NCBI GenBank assembly: GCA_903861205.1
Contig: CAIOTC010000003.1
Location: 7,964 to 71,963 of the forward strand
Direction: 5' to 3'
DNA from: an uncultured bacterium
GTDB lineage: Bacteria > Patescibacteriota > Minisyncoccia > Phycocordibacterales > DATDWN01
DNA length: 64,000 nt
Under the pieces are notes generated by a model. That model was not told the origin of the DNA. It ran no database searches and saw only the letters and a list, made by a program, of their open reading frames with translations. Of this stretch, positions 7,849-52,778 are shown piece after piece (within the stretch, counting starts at the first letter, position 1; every line of letters starts with the position of its first letter). A program made the translations under genes and the position numbers.

Positions 7849-7969
7849 TTACAAAAAATAATTTCTAATTTTTAATTTAAAATTTTTAATGAATGTCTAA
7901 ATTTAAAAATTGAATCAATTAAAATTCATTAAAAATTCAAAAATTAAAAATTAAAAATTTTTACAAACA

Positions 7970-11308: not shown

Positions 11309-12076
11309 ATGATTACAACAAAAACTTCTGAGGAAATCGAAATTTTGAAGGAAGGTGGTCATCGCCACGCTTTTATTTTAGGCGAGTTGGCCAAAAAAGC
11401 GGCGGTGGGAGTTTCGACACAGGAGTTGGAAGATTTGGCGCGTGAGCTGATAAAAGAAGGCGGGGGCACACCGGCTTTTTTGAATTACACTCCGCGTGGA
11501 GCCAAGCGGCCGTATCCGGCGGCGCTTAACGTTTCCATTAACGACGAAATTGTTCACGGTATTCCGAACGAAGATCCGAAAATTTTGCAGGACGGCGATG
11601 TTGTTTCGCTTGATCTGGGGCTTGTTCACCAAGGCATGATTACCGATAGCGCTATCACGGTTGGCGTTGGTGACATTTCCGAGGAAGACAGGAAAATGAT
11701 TTTGCATTGCCAGGAAGCGCTCTCGATTGGCATCAAAGCGGCTAGAGGTGGCGGCAAAGTGGGGGACATTAGCAGTGCCATTGAAGTTTTTGTACGACCT
11801 CTCGGTTACGGTATTCCTGACGGCTTGGCAGGCCACGGTGTCGGCTACAAGGTTCACGAGGAGCCATTTGTGCCTAACGAGGGGGCAAAGGGCAAAGGCG
11901 AGCTATTGCGTCCCGGTATGGTTCTGGCGATTGAGCCAATGATCACGCTTGGTTCCTCACGCATTGTCCTGTCCGGCGACGGTTACACCTACAAAACAGC
12001 CGATGGTTCGCGCGCCGCTCATTTCGAGCATACGATAGTGATCACGGATGGAGAAGCGATAATACTTACAAAATAA
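11309..12076 (+). CDS. map: Type I methionine aminopeptidase
   Basis: 255 aa; conserved metal-binding regions (DLGLVHQGM, HGVGY..HE). Confidence 0.95.
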   Translation: MITTKTSEEIEILKEGGHRHAFILGELAKKAAVGVSTQELEDLARELIKEGGGTPAFLNYTPRGAKRPYPAALNVSINDEIVHGIPNEDPKILQDGDVVSLDLGLVHQGMITDSAITVGVGDISEEDRKMILHCQEALSIGIKAARGGGKVGDISSAIEVFVRPLGYGIPDGLAGHGVGYKVHEEPFVPNEGAKGKGELLRPGMVLAIEPMITLGSSRIVLSGDGYTYKTADGSRAAHFEHTIVITDGEAIILTK

Positions 12077-12176
12077 TTTTCAATTTTTAATTTAGAATTT
12101 TTAATGAATATCTAAATTTTAAAATTTAATAATTGAAAATTCATTAAAAATTAAAAATTTTAAATTAAAAATTTAT

Positions 12177-12779
12177 ATGCATCCAAAATTTGAACGTACA
12201 CTTGTTATTATAAAACCCGATGGAGTACAGAGAAGTTTGATCGGCGAAATCATTGGCAGGTTTGAAAAGCTTGGCTTGAAAATGGTGGCAGCCAAAATGT
12301 GCGTGCCAACAGCAGAACATGTTGAAAAACATTACACTCTTGATCCCGAATGGCGCAGAATTACAGGAGAAAAAAGAGTCAAAGCGGCCAAAGAAAAAGG
12401 AGAAAAACTTGCGACGGAAGACCCTTTTGAAATTACAGCAAAAATTTTGGAAGTTTTGATAAAATACATGACATCAGGGCCAGTGGTAGCAATGGTTTGG
12501 CAGGGCGCGCACGCCACTGAATTGGTCAGAAAAATTGTCGGAGGCACGGAACCGCGAAGTTCTGATGTTGGCACAATTCGCGGAGATTATGTTCTTGATT
12601 CGTATGTAATGGCAGACACGGACAGCAGAGCTATCAGAAATCTAGTCCATGCTTCCGGCACAGCCAAAGAATCCGAGGCGGAAATAAAACACTGGTTTAA
12701 AGATGACGAAGTTCTCGACTACAAACTTGTTCAGGAATCTATTCTCTACGATGTAAACCTTGACGGCATATTTGAATAA
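12177..12779 (+). CDS. ndk: Nucleoside diphosphate kinase (with a C-terminal extension)
   Basis: ERTLVIIKPDGVQRSLIGEIIGRFE; 200 aa versus the usual ~140. Confidence 0.9.
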   Translation: MHPKFERTLVIIKPDGVQRSLIGEIIGRFEKLGLKMVAAKMCVPTAEHVEKHYTLDPEWRRITGEKRVKAAKEKGEKLATEDPFEITAKILEVLIKYMTSGPVVAMVWQGAHATELVRKIVGGTEPRSSDVGTIRGDYVLDSYVMADTDSRAIRNLVHASGTAKESEAEIKHWFKDDEVLDYKLVQESILYDVNLDGIFE

Positions 12780-19030: not shown

Positions 19031-19033
19031 AAA

Positions 19034-19422
19034 TGTGGAAGTGCCGACATTGAAGTCGGATGCAAAGAAAGAATTGAAATGGGTCTACAACGCTTAGTTT
19101 GTTTCAGGTTTTAGATCTTGCAGCTATAAAACAAACAAAACACTGCAAAATCGAGTCTCTATTTTTTAGAAAATTTTATGAGACAATAAAATTTTCGAAT
19201 CCGAATTTATTAGAACTACGTATCCCTATCGGATGTTGGGAAGGTAATCCTTTCTTACGCTCTCGCGTAGGAAAAAGCGAAATTGTTTGCCGTAAAATAC
19301 GGAGAAACAGTTGCTCGTTTAGTTAAGTTGTTTACACTTAGCTTTCCGGACTGTTTTAGAAGGATCCGGTACTTCGCGTCGCGCATGACAATGTGCAATC
19401 TATGTCAAAACCTGTCACCCCC
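19034..19422 (-). ncRNA. ssrA: tmRNA (SsrA), ~387 nt; proposed tag ANNFAFSYARA
   Basis: - strand 5' GGGGGUGACAGGUUUUGACAUAG...; 3' T-arm CCGACUUCAAUGUCGG; acceptor CACUUCC pairs with GGGGGUG including G3:U70; resume GCA at 19290, stop UAA at 19257-19255; immediately downstream of smpB. Confidence 0.7.
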
Positions 19423-22565: not shown

Positions 22566-22638
22566 ACGCGCATAGCTCAGTTGGTAGAGCGGTCGACTTA
22601 TACTCGATTGGTCGGGGGTTCGAGTCCCTCTGCGCGTA
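22566..22638 (+). tRNA. tRNA with anticodon UAU (Ile, AUA-reading)
   Basis: Cloverleaf: acceptor ACGCGCA/TGCGCGT, D-arm GCTCAGTTGGTAGAGC, anticodon loop CTTATAC, T-arm GGGGGTTCGAGTCCCTC. Confidence 0.65.
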
Positions 22639-23980: not shown

Positions 23981-26197
23981 CTATTCAAAATGTATCGCGT
24001 TTGTTTGGTCAGATATCCGCTCCGCAAGGCACGGGTATTTTTTTAGGTTTGGGTCGGACTCGATAATTTGCGTCGCTTCCAGACGCGCAGCCTCCACCAT
24101 TTTAATATTTTTGATGGCTTCCATGGCCAGGTCGGAGATGCCCCATTGTTTTCGTCCGTAAAGTTCGCCAGCGCCACGCTGGGCCAGGTCGAACTCGGCC
24201 AGCTCAAAACCGTTTTTGGCCGTGGTTAGAGCTTTCAGACGTGCGCGAGTTTTTTCACTTTTGCTTTCGGTGAAAACGAAACAATAGGCTTGATGATTCG
24301 AGCGGATGACGCGACCGCGAAGCTGATGCAGTTGCGACAAACCGAAACGCTCGGCGCCCTCGATGATAATCATGGTGGCGTTCGGCACATTGACACCAAC
24401 TTCCACCACCGATGTGGCCACTAGAATATCGATTTTCTTCTCGGCGAAATTTTGCATCGTTTTTTCTTTTTCGGCCGGAGTCATTTTGCTGTGCAGAATG
24501 GCGATGTTCCATTTTTGAAAAACATCTTTTTTGAGATGCTCGGCTTCGAGTTTGACCGATTTGGCGATGACAGCAAGCTCTTTTGTCGGATCCGGTTCGT
24601 CGATTCGCGGGCAGATGATATAAAGTTGTCGGCCGTTTTCGAGCTCTTGCGAAATTTCGTTGTAAGTTTTTTCACGCTCGGTCGGCAAAATAATTTTGGT
24701 GATAATCGGCTTGCGACCGACGGGCATTTGGTCGAGCAAAGTCAAATCCAAATCTCCGTAAATAGTGAGCGACAATGTACGGGGGATTGGCGTGGCAGTC
24801 ATGGTTAGTAAATGTGGAGCGACGCCGGATTTTGTGGTTAGCTTTTGACGTTGAGCTGTGCCGAAACGGTGTTGCTCGTCAATAACAACGAAAGCCAGAT
24901 GTTTGAAAGCGACGGATTTATAAATCAAAGCATGTGTGCCGATCAAAATTGGAACCTCGCCGTTGGCCACCCACTTCAAAAGCTGAGCGCGCGAAATGTG
25001 TGTCGGTTTGGTTTTGTCTGATTTTGACGGGAATATCTGGCAGCCACTGCCCGTAATCAGGCCGATTTTAATTGGCAGGTGTTTGAAATATCCGATGAAA
25101 TTTTCGTAATGTTGTTTGGCCAGAATTTCTGTCGGCGCCATGTAGGCCACTTGTAAATTGCCGAAATCTTGGCCGTTTGGTCGGCTTGTCGCTACAGCGA
25201 AAGCACAGGTCGCCGCCACTGCTGTTTTGCCGCTTCCGACGTCGCCTTCGAGAAGTCGTGACATAGGATGACCTTTTTTGAAATCGGTCAAAATGGTTTC
25301 GATTGATTTTTTCTGGGCTTCTGTCGGGGTGAATGGAAATCGTGAAATGAATTCATCGATAGATTTTTTGTCGGCGGTGACTGTAAAACTTTTTTCACTT
25401 TGCCATATTTTTTTGTCGCGTTGTTTTTGAAGCTGGATGAAAAAAATTTCCTCGAAAGCGAATCTTTTTCGCGCCGACTCGGCGTCTCGCGTATTTTTCG
25501 GCGTATGAATCCAAATAAGCGCTGTTTTCAAACACGGCAAATTGTATTTTTCCAAAATTTCGGCCGGAATTGGATCCTCCAAATTAGCAAGAACTGTTCT
25601 TGCTAAACTATCACCACGGAAGATTTTCTCGATGGCGTGATAAATCCAATTCGACGTGACGCCGGCCGACTCCGGATAGACTGGATACAAACTGTGTTCG
25701 TCGCCGCTCTCTCCAAACAAACTTTTGCCGACGCCGACGGGAATGGAGCGTGCAACCTCAACTTTTGGATTTGAAAAATATAGCTCTGATTTTCTCTCCG
25801 CCACTTTTCCTTGCACGCGCACCGTCGCGCCTTCGTGGAGCATTTTGGCAATATATGGCTGATGGAACCAAACAATTTTTATTTTTCCAGTTTCATCGGA
25901 CAGCGTGGCGTCAGCCATCGGAATTCTACTGCGGAAACCCTTACTTGTTTTCAGTCCCGTGACAGTACCGAAAACCGTCGCTTCCTCGCCGACGGCAAGC
26001 GAGTCAATGTATTTTATTTCCTTGGTATCGCCATATCGCACCGGAAAATGATACAGCAAATCCCGCACGGTTTTCAGCCCCAGCTTATCCAGTGCCTTCT
26101 TATGCGCCGGCAGTATTCGCAGGATGTCCGAAAGTGGCGAGTTCAAATTCATGGCTTCATTATGGGCTGTTTTGGGGAAAATAAAAAGTGCTTGCAA
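23981..26197 (-). CDS. recG: ATP-dependent DNA helicase RecG
   Basis: 738 aa; wedge domain plus SF2 helicase motifs (GDVGSGKT, DEQHRFG, TATPIPRTL); carries an in-frame REP palindrome at 25584-25606. Confidence 0.9.
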   Translation of the reverse strand: MQALFIFPKTAHNEAMNLNSPLSDILRILPAHKKALDKLGLKTVRDLLYHFPVRYGDTKEIKYIDSLAVGEEATVFGTVTGLKTSKGFRSRIPMADATLSDETGKIKIVWFHQPYIAKMLHEGATVRVQGKVAERKSELYFSNPKVEVARSIPVGVGKSLFGESGDEHSLYPVYPESAGVTSNWIYHAIEKIFRGDSLARTVLANLEDPIPAEILEKYNLPCLKTALIWIHTPKNTRDAESARKRFAFEEIFFIQLQKQRDKKIWQSEKSFTVTADKKSIDEFISRFPFTPTEAQKKSIETILTDFKKGHPMSRLLEGDVGSGKTAVAATCAFAVATSRPNGQDFGNLQVAYMAPTEILAKQHYENFIGYFKHLPIKIGLITGSGCQIFPSKSDKTKPTHISRAQLLKWVANGEVPILIGTHALIYKSVAFKHLAFVVIDEQHRFGTAQRQKLTTKSGVAPHLLTMTATPIPRTLSLTIYGDLDLTLLDQMPVGRKPIITKIILPTEREKTYNEISQELENGRQLYIICPRIDEPDPTKELAVIAKSVKLEAEHLKKDVFQKWNIAILHSKMTPAEKEKTMQNFAEKKIDILVATSVVEVGVNVPNATMIIIEGAERFGLSQLHQLRGRVIRSNHQAYCFVFTESKSEKTRARLKALTTAKNGFELAEFDLAQRGAGELYGRKQWGISDLAMEAIKNIKMVEAARLEATQIIESDPNLKKYPCLAERISDQTNAIHFE
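25584..25606. repeat. REP palindrome (ttagcaagaactgttcttgctaa), in-frame inside recG
   Basis: Perfect palindrome; encodes LARTVLA within the RecG reading frame. Confidence 0.6.
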
Positions 26198-26798: not shown

Positions 26799-27494
26799 TT
26801 ACCCAATGAGAGCTCCACGCAAACTCGCCGGATTCTTTCCGTCCCAGGAGATTTCGCCGGTCAAAACTTTTTCGGTGATGATCGGCTGCCATTTGTGTTC
26901 TGTCTCGAGGACGCGCGCGGCAAGCGTGTCGGCTGTGTCGTCGGGAAGAATTGGCACAGATTGTGAAAAGAAAAGCGGACCTTCGTCGTATTTTTCGGTG
27001 ACGAAATGCATTGAAACGGCCGAGTGAGTTATTTTTTCGCAAGAACTGTTCTTGCGAAAGTTGTGATATGCTTCCATGACCGCTTCGTGGACGTGGTGGC
27101 CATACATGCCGGCGCCGCCGAAACGGGGGAGCGGTCCAGGGTGAATGTTGATCGTTTTTTGAGGATCCAAACCGGTGACCAGTTTGAGCCAGCCCGAAAG
27201 GCAAACCAAATCCGCGTCGGCGACAATTTTTCTGTAATTTTCCGCCGTGCCGAATTCCGGTCCAGTTTCTCCATCAACGGGTTTGCGCGCGGGGAAGTAA
27301 ATAAATTTCACACCCAATCTGTCGGCGCGCTGTCTCACCCCGCCGTTTTCGTGATTGGAGACCACGGCCAAAATTTCGGCATTCAAAATTCCATTTCGTG
27401 AAGCATTCACCAAATTTTCAAACCCGCTACCTCCGCCGTCTTTTGTGCCGGAAGCGAAAATGATGATTTTCTTTTTTGTATCATTCGTAGTCAT
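26799..27494 (-). CDS. purN: Phosphoribosylglycinamide formyltransferase-like (PurN family)
   Basis: IIIFASGTKDGGGSGFENL and NIHPGPLPRFGGAGMYGHHVHEAV formyltransferase motifs; in-frame REP palindrome at 27035-27059. Confidence 0.65.
   Translation of the reverse strand: MTTNDTKKKIIIFASGTKDGGGSGFENLVNASRNGILNAEILAVVSNHENGGVRQRADRLGVKFIYFPARKPVDGETGPEFGTAENYRKIVADADLVCLSGWLKLVTGLDPQKTINIHPGPLPRFGGAGMYGHHVHEAVMEAYHNFRKNSSCEKITHSAVSMHFVTEKYDEGPLFFSQSVPILPDDTADTLAARVLETEHKWQPIITEKVLTGEISWDGKNPASLRGALIG
27035..27059. repeat. REP palindrome variant (tttcgcaagaactgttcttgcgaaa), in-frame inside the purN-like gene
   Basis: Perfect palindrome; encodes FRKNSSCEK. Confidence 0.55.
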
Positions 27495-40918: not shown

Positions 40919-40938
40919 ATTAAAGTTATCACCTTCAA

Positions 40939-40965
40939 CCCTAGCAAGAACAGTTCTTGCTAGGG
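40939..40965. repeat. REP palindrome (ccctagcaagaacagttcttgctaggg), 27-nt perfect
   Basis: Immediately upstream of the RAYT gene. Confidence 0.65.
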
Positions 40966-40985
40966 TTTGTATATGTTGATATAAT

Positions 40986-41687
40986 TTGCGTATGTTACGA
41001 AAAGACCCATTTGTTACTGGTGAATACTACCATTTATATAATCGTGGTATCGATAAGAGGATTATATTTAAATTAAAAAGAGATTACGAGAGGTTTATGG
41101 TTCTTTTGTACCTTGCAAATTCGGACGAATCTTTCCGCCTCGATAATTTAATAAGCATACAGCATAAAACATTTGATGAAATTTTGGTTTTAGATAAAGG
41201 TGAGCCCCTAGTTTCCATTGGAGTGTGGTGCATAATGGAGAATCACTTTCATTTGGTGGTAAGACAAGAAGTGGATGGGGGAATCACTCAGTTTATGAGA
41301 AAGCTTGGTGTTGGATATTCAATGTTTTTTAATATTAAGTATCAAAGAAAAGGTGCCCTATTCGGGGGACCTTTTAAATCAAAATTTATTGGGGATGATG
41401 ATTACATGCGGCAACTTTTTGGATATATTCATCTGAATCCTTTAGAAATAAAATTTCCAGATTGGAAAAACACCCTAGCAAGAACAGTTCTTGCTAGATC
41501 TGATGATATGAAAAAATTTCTGGAAGAGTATGGGTATTCGAGCTATTTGGATTATCTTGGAAGAGATAGAGCAGAAAAAAACATTCTCAGCACCAAAAAC
41601 TTTCCGGATTATTTTGGCGAGCAACAATCCTTCAGGAATTTTGTGGACGATTATCTAGCCGAGGGTCTATTTGAAGATGATAAATAA
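40986..41687 (+). CDS. REP-associated tyrosine transposase (RAYT; IS200/IS605-like HuH Y1 transposase)
   Basis: HuH motif NHFHLVV and catalytic-Tyr motif YIHLNPLE; flanked by REP palindromes and contains one. Confidence 0.7.
   Translation: MRMLRKDPFVTGEYYHLYNRGIDKRIIFKLKRDYERFMVLLYLANSDESFRLDNLISIQHKTFDEILVLDKGEPLVSIGVWCIMENHFHLVVRQEVDGGITQFMRKLGVGYSMFFNIKYQRKGALFGGPFKSKFIGDDDYMRQLFGYIHLNPLEIKFPDWKNTLARTVLARSDDMKKFLEEYGYSSYLDYLGRDRAEKNILSTKNFPDYFGEQQSFRNFVDDYLAEGLFEDDK
41473..41497. repeat. REP palindrome inside the RAYT gene (encodes LARTVLA)
   Basis: ccctagcaagaacagttcttgctag. Confidence 0.6.
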
Positions 41688-41699
41688 TTTTAGCAAGTT

Positions 41700-41722
41700 T
41701 TAGCAAGAACTGTTCTTGCTAA
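41700..41722. repeat. REP palindrome downstream of RAYT (ttagcaagaactgttcttgctaa), with a partial tandem half-copy
   Basis: Perfect palindrome, preceded by tagcaagtt. Confidence 0.6.
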
Positions 41723-41805
41723 ATTCTTGGTGTTATTACCAGATTTGTTTTAATTCAGATGCCTTCGCAGTATAATTAGCGTATGGACTTTCATAATGCA
41801 CTGAC

Positions 41806-52468: not shown

Positions 52469-52604
52469 ACACGTAATTTGAACACGAAAAGTGGATAATT
52501 CGAGTTGATTTTGACGTTAAAGTATGATAGCATTCGTCCACAGCGGGATAGAGTAGCAGTAACTCGCGGGGCCCATAACCCTGAAACTCACGTGCAAGTC
52601 GTGA

Positions 52605-52661
52605 TCCCGCAACAAGTATGAAAAAACACCCATAATGGGTGTTTTTTCATACTTGTTGCGG
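52605..52661. other. Perfect 26-bp-stem hairpin (cccgcaacaagtatgaaaaaacaccc-ataat-gggtgttttttcatacttgttgcggg)
   Basis: Read directly; lies between the HEPN-like gene and tRNA-Met. Confidence 0.4.
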
Positions 52662-52707
52662 GATAGCGCTTGTTTTTATTCACTTGTTATATTATATTGT
52701 TTGTGCA

Positions 52708-52778
52708 GCCGGCGTAGTTCAATGGTAGAACGGGGGACTCATAAGCCTCAAAAAATGGTTCAATTCCATTCGCCGGCA
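52708..52778 (+). tRNA. tRNA-Met/Ile2 (anticodon CAU)
   Basis: Acceptor GCCGGCG/CGCCGGC, D-arm GTTCAATGGTAGAAC, anticodon loop CTCATAA, T-arm AATGGTTCAATTCCATT. Confidence 0.7.

Follow-up and report, generated by a model that had tools for sequence, protein, structure and literature searches.

The closest described relatives of the system analyzed here are the REPtrons of Escherichia coli, in which RayT/TnpAREP, a REP-associated tyrosine transposase (RAYT), goes together with repetitive extragenic palindromes (REPs) and bacterial interspersed mosaic elements (BIMEs) (PDB entry 4er8; Nunvar 2010, Ton-Hoang 2012, Messing 2012). The E. coli enzyme has a Y1/HUH fold with an HuH motif and a single catalytic tyrosine in a Y-x3-NP motif, and its conserved, apparently single-copy gene lies between short palindromes of its own, further copies of which are scattered mainly through intergenic regions. 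These features of fold, motifs and palindromes recur in a stretch of 64,000 nucleotides (hereafter the window) from contig CAIOTC010000003.1 of an uncultured member of the Patescibacteria, where a RAYT-like Y1/HUH tyrosine transposase-like protein of 231 aa, belonging to TnpAY1 class 2, is encoded at positions 40992..41687 of the forward strand, once in 64 kb. The bracketing of the gene, the dispersed and mainly extragenic copies of the palindrome and a palindrome core linked to the protein clade together make up the REPtron pattern. We propose that the gene, coding for a conserved RAYT-type Y1/HUH nuclease-transposase, and a short perfect palindrome acting as its recognition element probably constitute a REPtron-like unit.

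Y1 transposases are divided according to their tyrosine motif, Y-x3-NP marking class 2, the RAYT side, and Y-x3-Q marking IS200 (Quentin et al. 2018, PMC6006769). Subclass 2.1 (Bertels group 1) is characterized by NH[YF]H, "FQ", Y[IV]HLNP, an SS tail and a length of about 238 aa (Table 1 of the same paper); no REP-like sequences were found beside its genes, and the authors considered it the probable equivalent of the TIRYTs (Di Nocera 2013), among whose flanking repeats there are self-complementary ones that make up small families. The window protein resembles this subclass in its NHFH, LFGG (LFQG or LFEG in a distant clade of homologues) and YIHLNP motifs, its S183-S184 tail and its 231 aa, which, in a comparison made by motif only, suggests a better fit to subclass 2.1 than to the classical E. 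coli or Pseudomonas RAYT groups. It differs in that the terminal inverted repeats of the TIRYTs carry GGGGWSAS, which is absent here, whereas the flanks in the window are self-complementary hairpin palindromes. Moreover, the C-terminal helix-turn-helix (HTH)/DnaA_C-like domain was not found in the window protein, for which no Pfam family besides Y1_Tnp was matched at E<=1. Compared with E. coli TnpAREP, its best structural match (its best curated profile being that of the RAYT family), the window protein is only 11% identical over the structural alignment and carries an additional helical domain of 80 aa at its C-terminus. The palindromes also differ from E. coli REPs, being perfect, with a 1-nt centre and without a GTAG foot or bulge, and their core is conserved across many genera rather than species-specific, with one in six copies intragenic.

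Symmetric ends of the repeat and in-frame copies in the transposase and other genes are also features of TnpAY1 subclass 2.4 (Cyanobacteria and Bacteroidetes, with "double-foot" REPs), but the REPs of that subclass keep GT[AG]G...C[TC]AC feet, and its proteins have WQ and YIxNNP motifs and no tail domain. The TnpA proteins of IS200, IS608 and ISDra2 (subclass 1.1) have the same fold, and recognition of a single-stranded DNA (ssDNA) hairpin is likely a shared mechanism; their Y-x3-Q and DH[VI]H motifs, length of about 150 aa, multiple copies, distinct imperfect end hairpins and frequent tnpB partner were not seen here (copy number being that in the 64-kb window). Short in-frame palindromes tolerated in housekeeping proteins, a large share of which act in replication or repair, are likewise known from the Rickettsia palindromic elements and from intragenic GTAG/CGTC REPs (Ogata 2000; Di Nocera 2013), and for other RAYT groups in-frame REPs have been described, many in genes for replication and repair, and also within the transposase gene (Di Nocera 2013; Quentin 2018). 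In comparison, the units described here are much shorter (7 aa), and some of them replace native sequence without a change in length.

The preliminary description had assigned the gene to the RAYTs on account of an HuH motif and a YIxxNP tyrosine motif. Both are present, as ENHFHLVV and GYIHLNP, and N84, H85, H87, Y145, N149 and S183-S184 are invariant in 146 homologues. Pfam and profile searches, which might have pointed to an unrelated family, returned Y1_Tnp (PF01797) barely at its threshold (23.2 bits, cut-off 23) and, as the sole NCBIfam match, REP_Tyr_transpos (NF047646) with 29.9 bits (equivalog cut-off 80). All 146 of 146 family members match the latter model, the best with an E value of 3.2e-14 and still under the cut-off, and none of the 146 matches the NCBIfam models of IS200 transposase (TnpA) at E<=0.01. 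An AlphaFold2 (AF2) model built from the alignment of these 146 diverse homologues, which had been gained through a search with a 42%-identical relative, reached a predicted local distance difference test score (pLDDT) of 88.4 and a predicted TM score (pTM) of 0.87, as against a pLDDT of 35.7 from 16 close homologues alone. In a Foldseek comparison of this model with the PDB, a single entry matched at E<=1e-3: 4er8, the complex of E. coli TnpAREP with a REP hairpin (TM 0.66 on the target, probability 1.0, E 7.9e-5). The TnpA proteins of IS608, ISDra2 and IS200 were ranked next (probability ~1.0, TM 0.5-0.6 on the target). The assignment therefore held in the sense that profile and fold searches lead to the Y1/HUH superfamily, in which the RAYTs come nearest both among curated families and among solved structures. 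Based on matches to RAYT profiles only, class 2 motifs and 4er8 as the top match of the modelled fold, the protein is placed nearer to the RAYTs than to the IS200 transposases.

The protein belongs to a distinct family whose extra C-terminal helical domain has no Pfam match. One search gave 1578 significant matches, and with the 42%-identical relative 7963 of 8000 scored candidates were significant. The named sources are Parcubacteria, Nomura-, Zambryski-, Taylor-, Staskawicz- and Yonath-bacteria and Paceibacterota, so that, as far as names show, the family is confined to Patescibacteria; its members are annotated as "transposase" or "hypothetical" where named.

The palindrome has a 17-nt core, TAGCAAGAAC-N-GTTCTTGCTA, with the half-site GCAAGAAC, and five copies, none of them assigned to a strand, are present in the window. 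The upstream cognate copy (AACCCTAGCAAGAAC A GTTCTTGCTAGGGTT) lies at 40937..40967, with 15-nt arms and a total of 31 nt; a second copy, inside the Y1 gene, lies at 41475..41497 (11-nt arms, 23 nt) and encodes LARTVLA in frame; and the downstream cognate copy (TTTAGCAAGAAC T GTTCTTGCTAAA) lies at 41699..41723 (12-nt arms, 25 nt), 12 nt past the stop codon. The three perfect palindromes described earlier upstream of, inside and downstream of the gene are thus real, their lengths of up to 31 nt slightly exceeding the 21-27 nt originally given. The two remaining copies are dispersed: one lies at 25584..25606 inside RecG (ORF 23981-26152, minus strand), again encoding LARTVLA in frame, and the other, a TCGC..GCGA variant at 27035..27059 inside PurN (ORF 26799-27494, minus strand), encodes FRKNSSC in frame. 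Together with copies in other loci of Patescibacteria they settle the question of whether the palindrome is unique to this locus, which it is not.

A search of the whole window with the 21-nt pattern, allowing up to 3 mismatches, gave 5 matches, with 0.00 expected from 100 shuffles. The half-site GCAAGAAC occurs 13 times, 10 of these within the five palindromes; the 3 solo occurrences are at the chance level (2.2 expected), which identifies the palindrome, not a single-site motif, as the unit. A DNA-uptake sequence, considered as a candidate, was rejected on the same count. In ssDNA each window copy is predicted to fold into a hairpin of 10-14 bp whose loop has 3 nt, with energies from -8.5 to -14.4 kcal/mol (z from -4.7 to -7.7), the upstream copy being the most stable (-14.4 kcal/mol, z = -7.7). 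The bases outside the core vary (TAGC, TCGC, AAGC, GCGC, CAGC) and are symmetric in every case; the arms are perfect, and their outer length is variable and locus-specific. No RNA family was found at the palindromes in an Rfam scan at gathering thresholds.

The association of gene and palindrome was analyzed in two sets of loci. The first was selected by the palindrome, using a pattern scan for GCAAGAACNGTTCTTGC with one genome per species, and comprises at least 118 loci, about 70 of them from Patescibacteria among the matches listed. Among these matches, arms of at least 10 nt were present in 88 of the 98 copies from Patescibacteria, and the copies from other organisms were single, scattered and mostly bare 8-9-nt arms, as chance predicts. 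A homologous gene bracketed by the palindrome was found in L017, L018, L080, L088, L103 and L111; in L022 the gene is present and the scan found one copy of the palindrome only, about 320 nt downstream. The second set was selected by the protein and consists of 80 loci on metagenome contigs, at 42-74% identity, of which 72 have flanks on both sides. An identical perfect palindrome was observed on both sides of the Y1 gene in 44 of these 72 loci.

The core types in the clade of 54-74% identity are GCAAGAAC, GCAAGGAC, GCTAGGAC and GTAAGAAC, and those in the clade of 42-48% identity are AAGGTTnAACCTT, CATAGGCGAGGCCTATG, CATAGGGGTACCCTATG and others; the changes between the clades are compensatory on both arms in every case. 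The nearest protein neighbour has the same core type in 26 of 53 cases, compared with 14.4 in shuffles, and 26 was the maximum over 2000 shuffles. Hence both the gene-palindrome association and the sequence of the palindrome track the protein across Patescibacteria, and the earlier proposal that the palindromes are cognate to the transposase is borne out by bracketing in dozens of loci and by a palindrome that differs according to protein clade. Solo cognate copies in the protein-selected loci number 10 in 344 kb of flanks, i.e. ~0.3 (0.29) per 10 kb, which is comparable to the two solo copies in 63 kb of the window.

A link to phages was rejected, as the 35 IMG/VR matches were single, near chance and in no case accompanied by a Y1 gene. 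Eleven of the IMG/VR contigs (L200, L203, L205, L210, L213, L214, L220, L224-L226 and L231) share CTGCAAGAAC(A/T)GTTCTTGCAG with no Y1 gene nearby, and this 21-mer probably belongs to a single conserved phage locus whose match to the core is coincidental.

The upstream palindrome overlaps a promoter-like site at 40957..40985 (plus strand), in which the -35 element TTGCTA is part of the right arm of the palindrome and is followed by a 17-nt spacer and TGaTATAAT, with 10 of 12 matches plus the TG extension. The distance of 6 nt to the ATG is a leaderless-type spacing. The palindrome core lies ~49 nt before the ATG, the same position as in most homologous loci, and the -35/-10 layout, including this core-to-ATG distance, recurs throughout the clade of 56-74% identity; in the distant clade the palindrome adjoins the -10 box. 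Solo palindromes showed no excess of -10 boxes at the promoter spacing of 16-18 nt, which makes the promoter arrangement specific to the Y1 gene. The possibility of a portable promoter was rejected, only the copy upstream of the Y1 gene having a promoter layout. Judging from this layout, the gene is probably autoregulated through binding at the upstream copy. On the other side of the gene, the downstream palindrome of homologous loci lies 0-40 nt past the stop codon or overlaps it, and the overlap gives rise to C-terminal tails such as ...FARTVLAKRKV in the homologues.

Most copies among the matches listed are far from any Y1 gene. Among the same matches, 31% of the copies lie in long open frames, compared with 77% of random positions, so the palindromes are mainly extragenic; 17 of the 98 copies from Patescibacteria (about one in six) are clearly internal to long ORFs. 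According to Pfam, the intragenic hosts include GatB, RsmA (two genes), a GT4 glycosyltransferase (two copies), a Mur ligase, SMC, a UvrD/PD-(D/E)XK helicase-nuclease, ArgRS, SecA and PurH (two copies). In the L043 GT4 glycosyltransferase the peptide NLARTVLAKN occurs twice, 20 residues apart, from two palindromes in one gene, and the two palindromes of the L106 PurH are in different frames.

Three of the five window copies are in frame within genes (the Y1 gene, RecG and PurN). The copy inside the Y1 gene adds a net 4 aa, is absent in all 37 of 37 aligned homologues, and lies in a low-confidence loop of the AF2 model (pLDDT ~62) between the catalytic-tyrosine helix and the C-terminal domain. 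RecG of the window is 5 aa longer than the short form found in 114 of 120 Parcubacteria RecG homologues, and PurN has a clean addition of 7 aa (21 nt) with respect to nearly all of ~58 aligned homologues. The PurN copy is the sole TCGC..GCGA variant in the window and is in the frame where GCTA followed by A gives a TAA stop; with both arms changed, the symmetry is kept and a TGC-TAA stop is avoided. At the RecG loop equivalent to 25584-25606, P0139 has TLARTVLAS, and P0205 and P0231 have the unlike insert GGSASGGKE; this surface loop may be especially prone to short insertions.

The net change in length caused by intragenic copies varies, from +7, +7, +5, +4 and +3 aa to zero in ArgRS and MurF. 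In the L092 ArgRS and the L048 Mur ligase, the palindrome peptide (ARTVLAK or LARTVLA) can be aligned without gaps with conserved native motifs (YAHAR..SILRK and GKTTTKEM..AIL), and the RsmA proteins of L010 and L036 show no difference in length at the palindrome site. From the alignments, these zero-length-change copies look like the result of in-place overwriting rather than insertion. Additionally, truncated or complete extra copies of the adjacent arm, here called tandem arm stutter, accompany 48 of 193 palindromes in related loci, including L149, L063, L064, L103, L154 and L168, the break points being after CAAG or at the centre of symmetry. In the window this is observed at 41688-41723, where a truncated extra left arm (TTTTAGCAAG), read from the sequence, precedes the downstream palindrome at 41688..41697 (plus strand). 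Stutter and a variable or zero change in length suggest, in place of plain insertion, that the hairpin apex is a site of breakage and copying or that sequences are converted in place.

For the REPtron-like unit we propose the following sequence of events. The palindrome would extrude on ssDNA, for example at a replication fork, as a hairpin of 10-15 bp with a 3-nt loop, and the Y1 protein would bind its conserved apical part, CAAG[A/G]AC-N-GT[C/T]CTTG. The HuH metal site and Tyr145 would then cleave and rejoin the strand, by which palindromes could be copied or moved to new sites. Binding at the upstream copy, which overlaps the -35 element of the leaderless-type promoter of the gene, would probably autoregulate expression, and the downstream copy may end or stabilise the transcript. 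Intragenic copies would survive only where the heptapeptide (LARTVLA, xKNxSC or xQExFLx) is tolerated.

The gene had been described as starting at 40986 and as embedded in a type IV pilus locus. The ORF is present, but position 40986 is the TTG of the mechanically called frame and the homologues all start at the ATG at 40992 (MLRKDPF...), giving the product of 231 aa, which is identical to the database protein P0001. The pilus setting was confirmed using Pfam: four tandem N_methyl pilin genes lie upstream of the Y1 gene, a glycosyltransferase family 2 (GT2) gene, an A24 prepilin peptidase (PilD) gene and three minor pilin genes lie downstream, and the cluster also holds a T2SSF PilC gene. The position between the four pilin genes and GT2-PilD recurs in L160, L103, L154 and L018, and the same pilin/PilD site carries the Y1 unit in the opposite orientation in L124, L141 and L148, which is consistent with an inversion between the two identical flanking palindromes. 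In total, 14 of the 89 Y1 loci lie within type IV pilus clusters or border on them; the gene takes at least four different positions there, including other points of these clusters, and either orientation. The remaining loci, ~75 of the 89, are away from pilus genes.

Where the loci are syntenic, the Y1 proteins share 65-71% identity with that of the window, compared with 58-60% for PilC, 39-44% for PilD and 28-47% for the pilins. The Y1 protein is therefore under stronger constraint than its pilus-gene neighbours. Where the identical Y1 protein occurs in other samples, its neighbours are the same every time, and L199, which comes from a different sample, shares 99.9% identity with the window and does not differ from it at the palindromes. 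Conserved synteny, an identity higher than that of the neighbours, an identical protein with constant neighbours and one copy in the window together fit a domesticated, slowly evolving gene, a behaviour reported for some RAYT groups (Bertels 2017).

Two further observations concern copies of the Y1 gene. In L103 (5040-6031), a second, incomplete copy of the Y1 N-terminus (66% identity over residues 1-83) lies between two palindromes, directly upstream of the full gene. Distant Y1 paralogues are encoded in L099 (1531-2016, 39% identity) and L045 (1182-1667, 26%), both of them Patescibacteria loci with the GCAAGAAC palindrome, and there may be more than one Y1 lineage per genome.

Several of the results weigh against a REPtron-like unit. 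The score of 29.9 bits is far under the NCBIfam RAYT cut-off, sequence-profile matches to the PDB are insignificant (E 0.1 for 4er8), and the palindromes have neither a GT[AG]G or CGTC tag nor the imperfections of canonical REPs. By a strict criterion, 24 of the 72 protein-selected loci have a palindrome on one side only or differing palindromes, and 4 have none. Simple insertion explains neither the zero-length-change copies in ArgRS, MurF and RsmA nor the tandem arm stutter. Finally, the Y1 unit is found in many settings unrelated to one another, and one site carries it in either orientation. With a score under the cut-off, no GTAG foot and perfect palindromes, the system is not a strict member of the curated RAYT family. 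The diversity of contexts and orientations indicates that the unit has moved or been inverted, and would also be expected if the whole 790-bp palindrome-tnpA-palindrome segment were an autonomous IS200-like insertion sequence (IS) and the solo palindromes its footprints or derivatives resembling miniature inverted-repeat transposable elements (MITEs). The size and layout, with hairpin ends and one small Y1 gene, are similar, and the opposite orientations at the pilin/PilD site, the other positions in pilus clusters and the partial gene duplicate between palindromes in L103 speak for such an element. We nevertheless regard it as unlikely, since the motifs are those of class 2 (NHFH, Y-x3-NP) and not of class 1 (DH[VI]H, Y-x3-Q), no family member matches the IS200 TnpA model, and the protein has 231 aa with a conserved C-terminal domain instead of ~150 aa. 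Moreover, one perfect palindrome forms both ends, in contrast to IS200/IS605, whose left and right hairpins are imperfect and different from each other, and the palindromes far outnumber the genes. A single copy in 64 kb, an identical protein with constant neighbours and a protein more conserved than its syntenic housekeeping neighbours also argue against an autonomous IS.

That the palindromes are host operators of an unrelated dimeric DNA-binding protein, or terminators, on which the Y1 protein does not act, is a highly improbable explanation. Perfect palindromes are typical of the sites of dimeric regulators, three window copies score as weak terminator-like hairpins and one overlaps a promoter; but most loci have the gene between copies of one palindrome, which is placed at a fixed distance and differs with the clade of the protein, copies in coding regions and tandem arm copies would be unexpected, and solo copies are not enriched in -10 boxes at promoter spacing. 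We consider equally far-fetched the idea that template-switching at quasi-palindromes during replication is the main process by which the palindromes arise and stay perfect, with a role of the Y1 protein that is secondary at most. It would account for perfect arms of variable, locus-specific outer length, for the joint change of both PurN arms, for intragenic copies without a change in protein length and for tandem arm copies that break at the centre of symmetry, but it leaves unexplained both the recurrence of the same 17-nt core at ~30 sites per Mb in many genera and the co-variation of the core with the adjacent protein. The enzyme could also be a domesticated ssDNA-processing enzyme tied to the type IV pilus and DNA uptake, with palindromes that are signals on incoming or replicating ssDNA and not selfish repeats. 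HUH Y1 enzymes are well known to work on ssDNA, the protein is very strongly conserved, and the 14 of 89 loci at pilus clusters far exceed the ~2% of a 1-Mb genome that such clusters occupy; this count is inflated by shared ancestry, however, ~75 of the 89 loci are away from pilus genes, and half-sites by themselves show no excess of the kind expected for an uptake sequence, so that we judge this link very unlikely. Slightly less remote, and still quite unlikely, is a joint reading in which palindromes are rewritten from a hairpin template and this activity is tied to ssDNA entering through the adjacent type IV pilus/competence machinery. Here, the Y1 enzyme would nick at or near the hairpin apex and the break would be resolved by copying, yielding tandem arm copies, extension of the arms into locus-specific flanks and overwriting of native coding sequence that resembles the half-site.

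Patescibacteria, also known as the candidate phyla radiation (CPR), have tiny, gene-dense genomes and are usually described as poor in mobile DNA. The data support the view that a RAYT-like gene with cognate palindromes, a variant of the known RAYT/REP kind, is common in these bacteria, and the Y1 family, which has a set of repeats of its own, resembles a domesticated RAYT in its behaviour. Our literature search, whose coverage is incomplete and which leaves absence unproven, found no publication linking RAYT, REP or IS200 systems with Patescibacteria, Parcubacteria or the CPR. The REPtron-like unit extends RAYT/REP biology to a major uncultivated lineage and links a 2.1-like protein type, reported without REPs, to clear hairpin repeats. 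The perfect 17-nt core shared across many genera, with its natural compensatory variants, provides a clean system for hairpin recognition and spread. In-frame decoration of essential proteins (RecG, PurN, PurH, SecA, ArgRS, MurF and others) is relevant to annotation and to protein evolution in reduced genomes, and the short repeats could be used as strain markers in metagenomes.

Some other features of the window are recorded here. A tmRNA is encoded at 19033-19422 (minus strand), and four tRNAs at 22566, 29126, 52708 and 53520. Repeated AT-rich 21-mers are present at 7885 and 9124, and an AT-rich palindromic stretch at 12074-12181. A 61-nt perfect palindrome at 52604-52664, with 30-nt arms, a 1-nt centre and T/A runs, lies ~45 nt upstream of the tRNA at 52708-52778; its sequence is unrelated to the Y1 palindromes, and it may be a bidirectional terminator.

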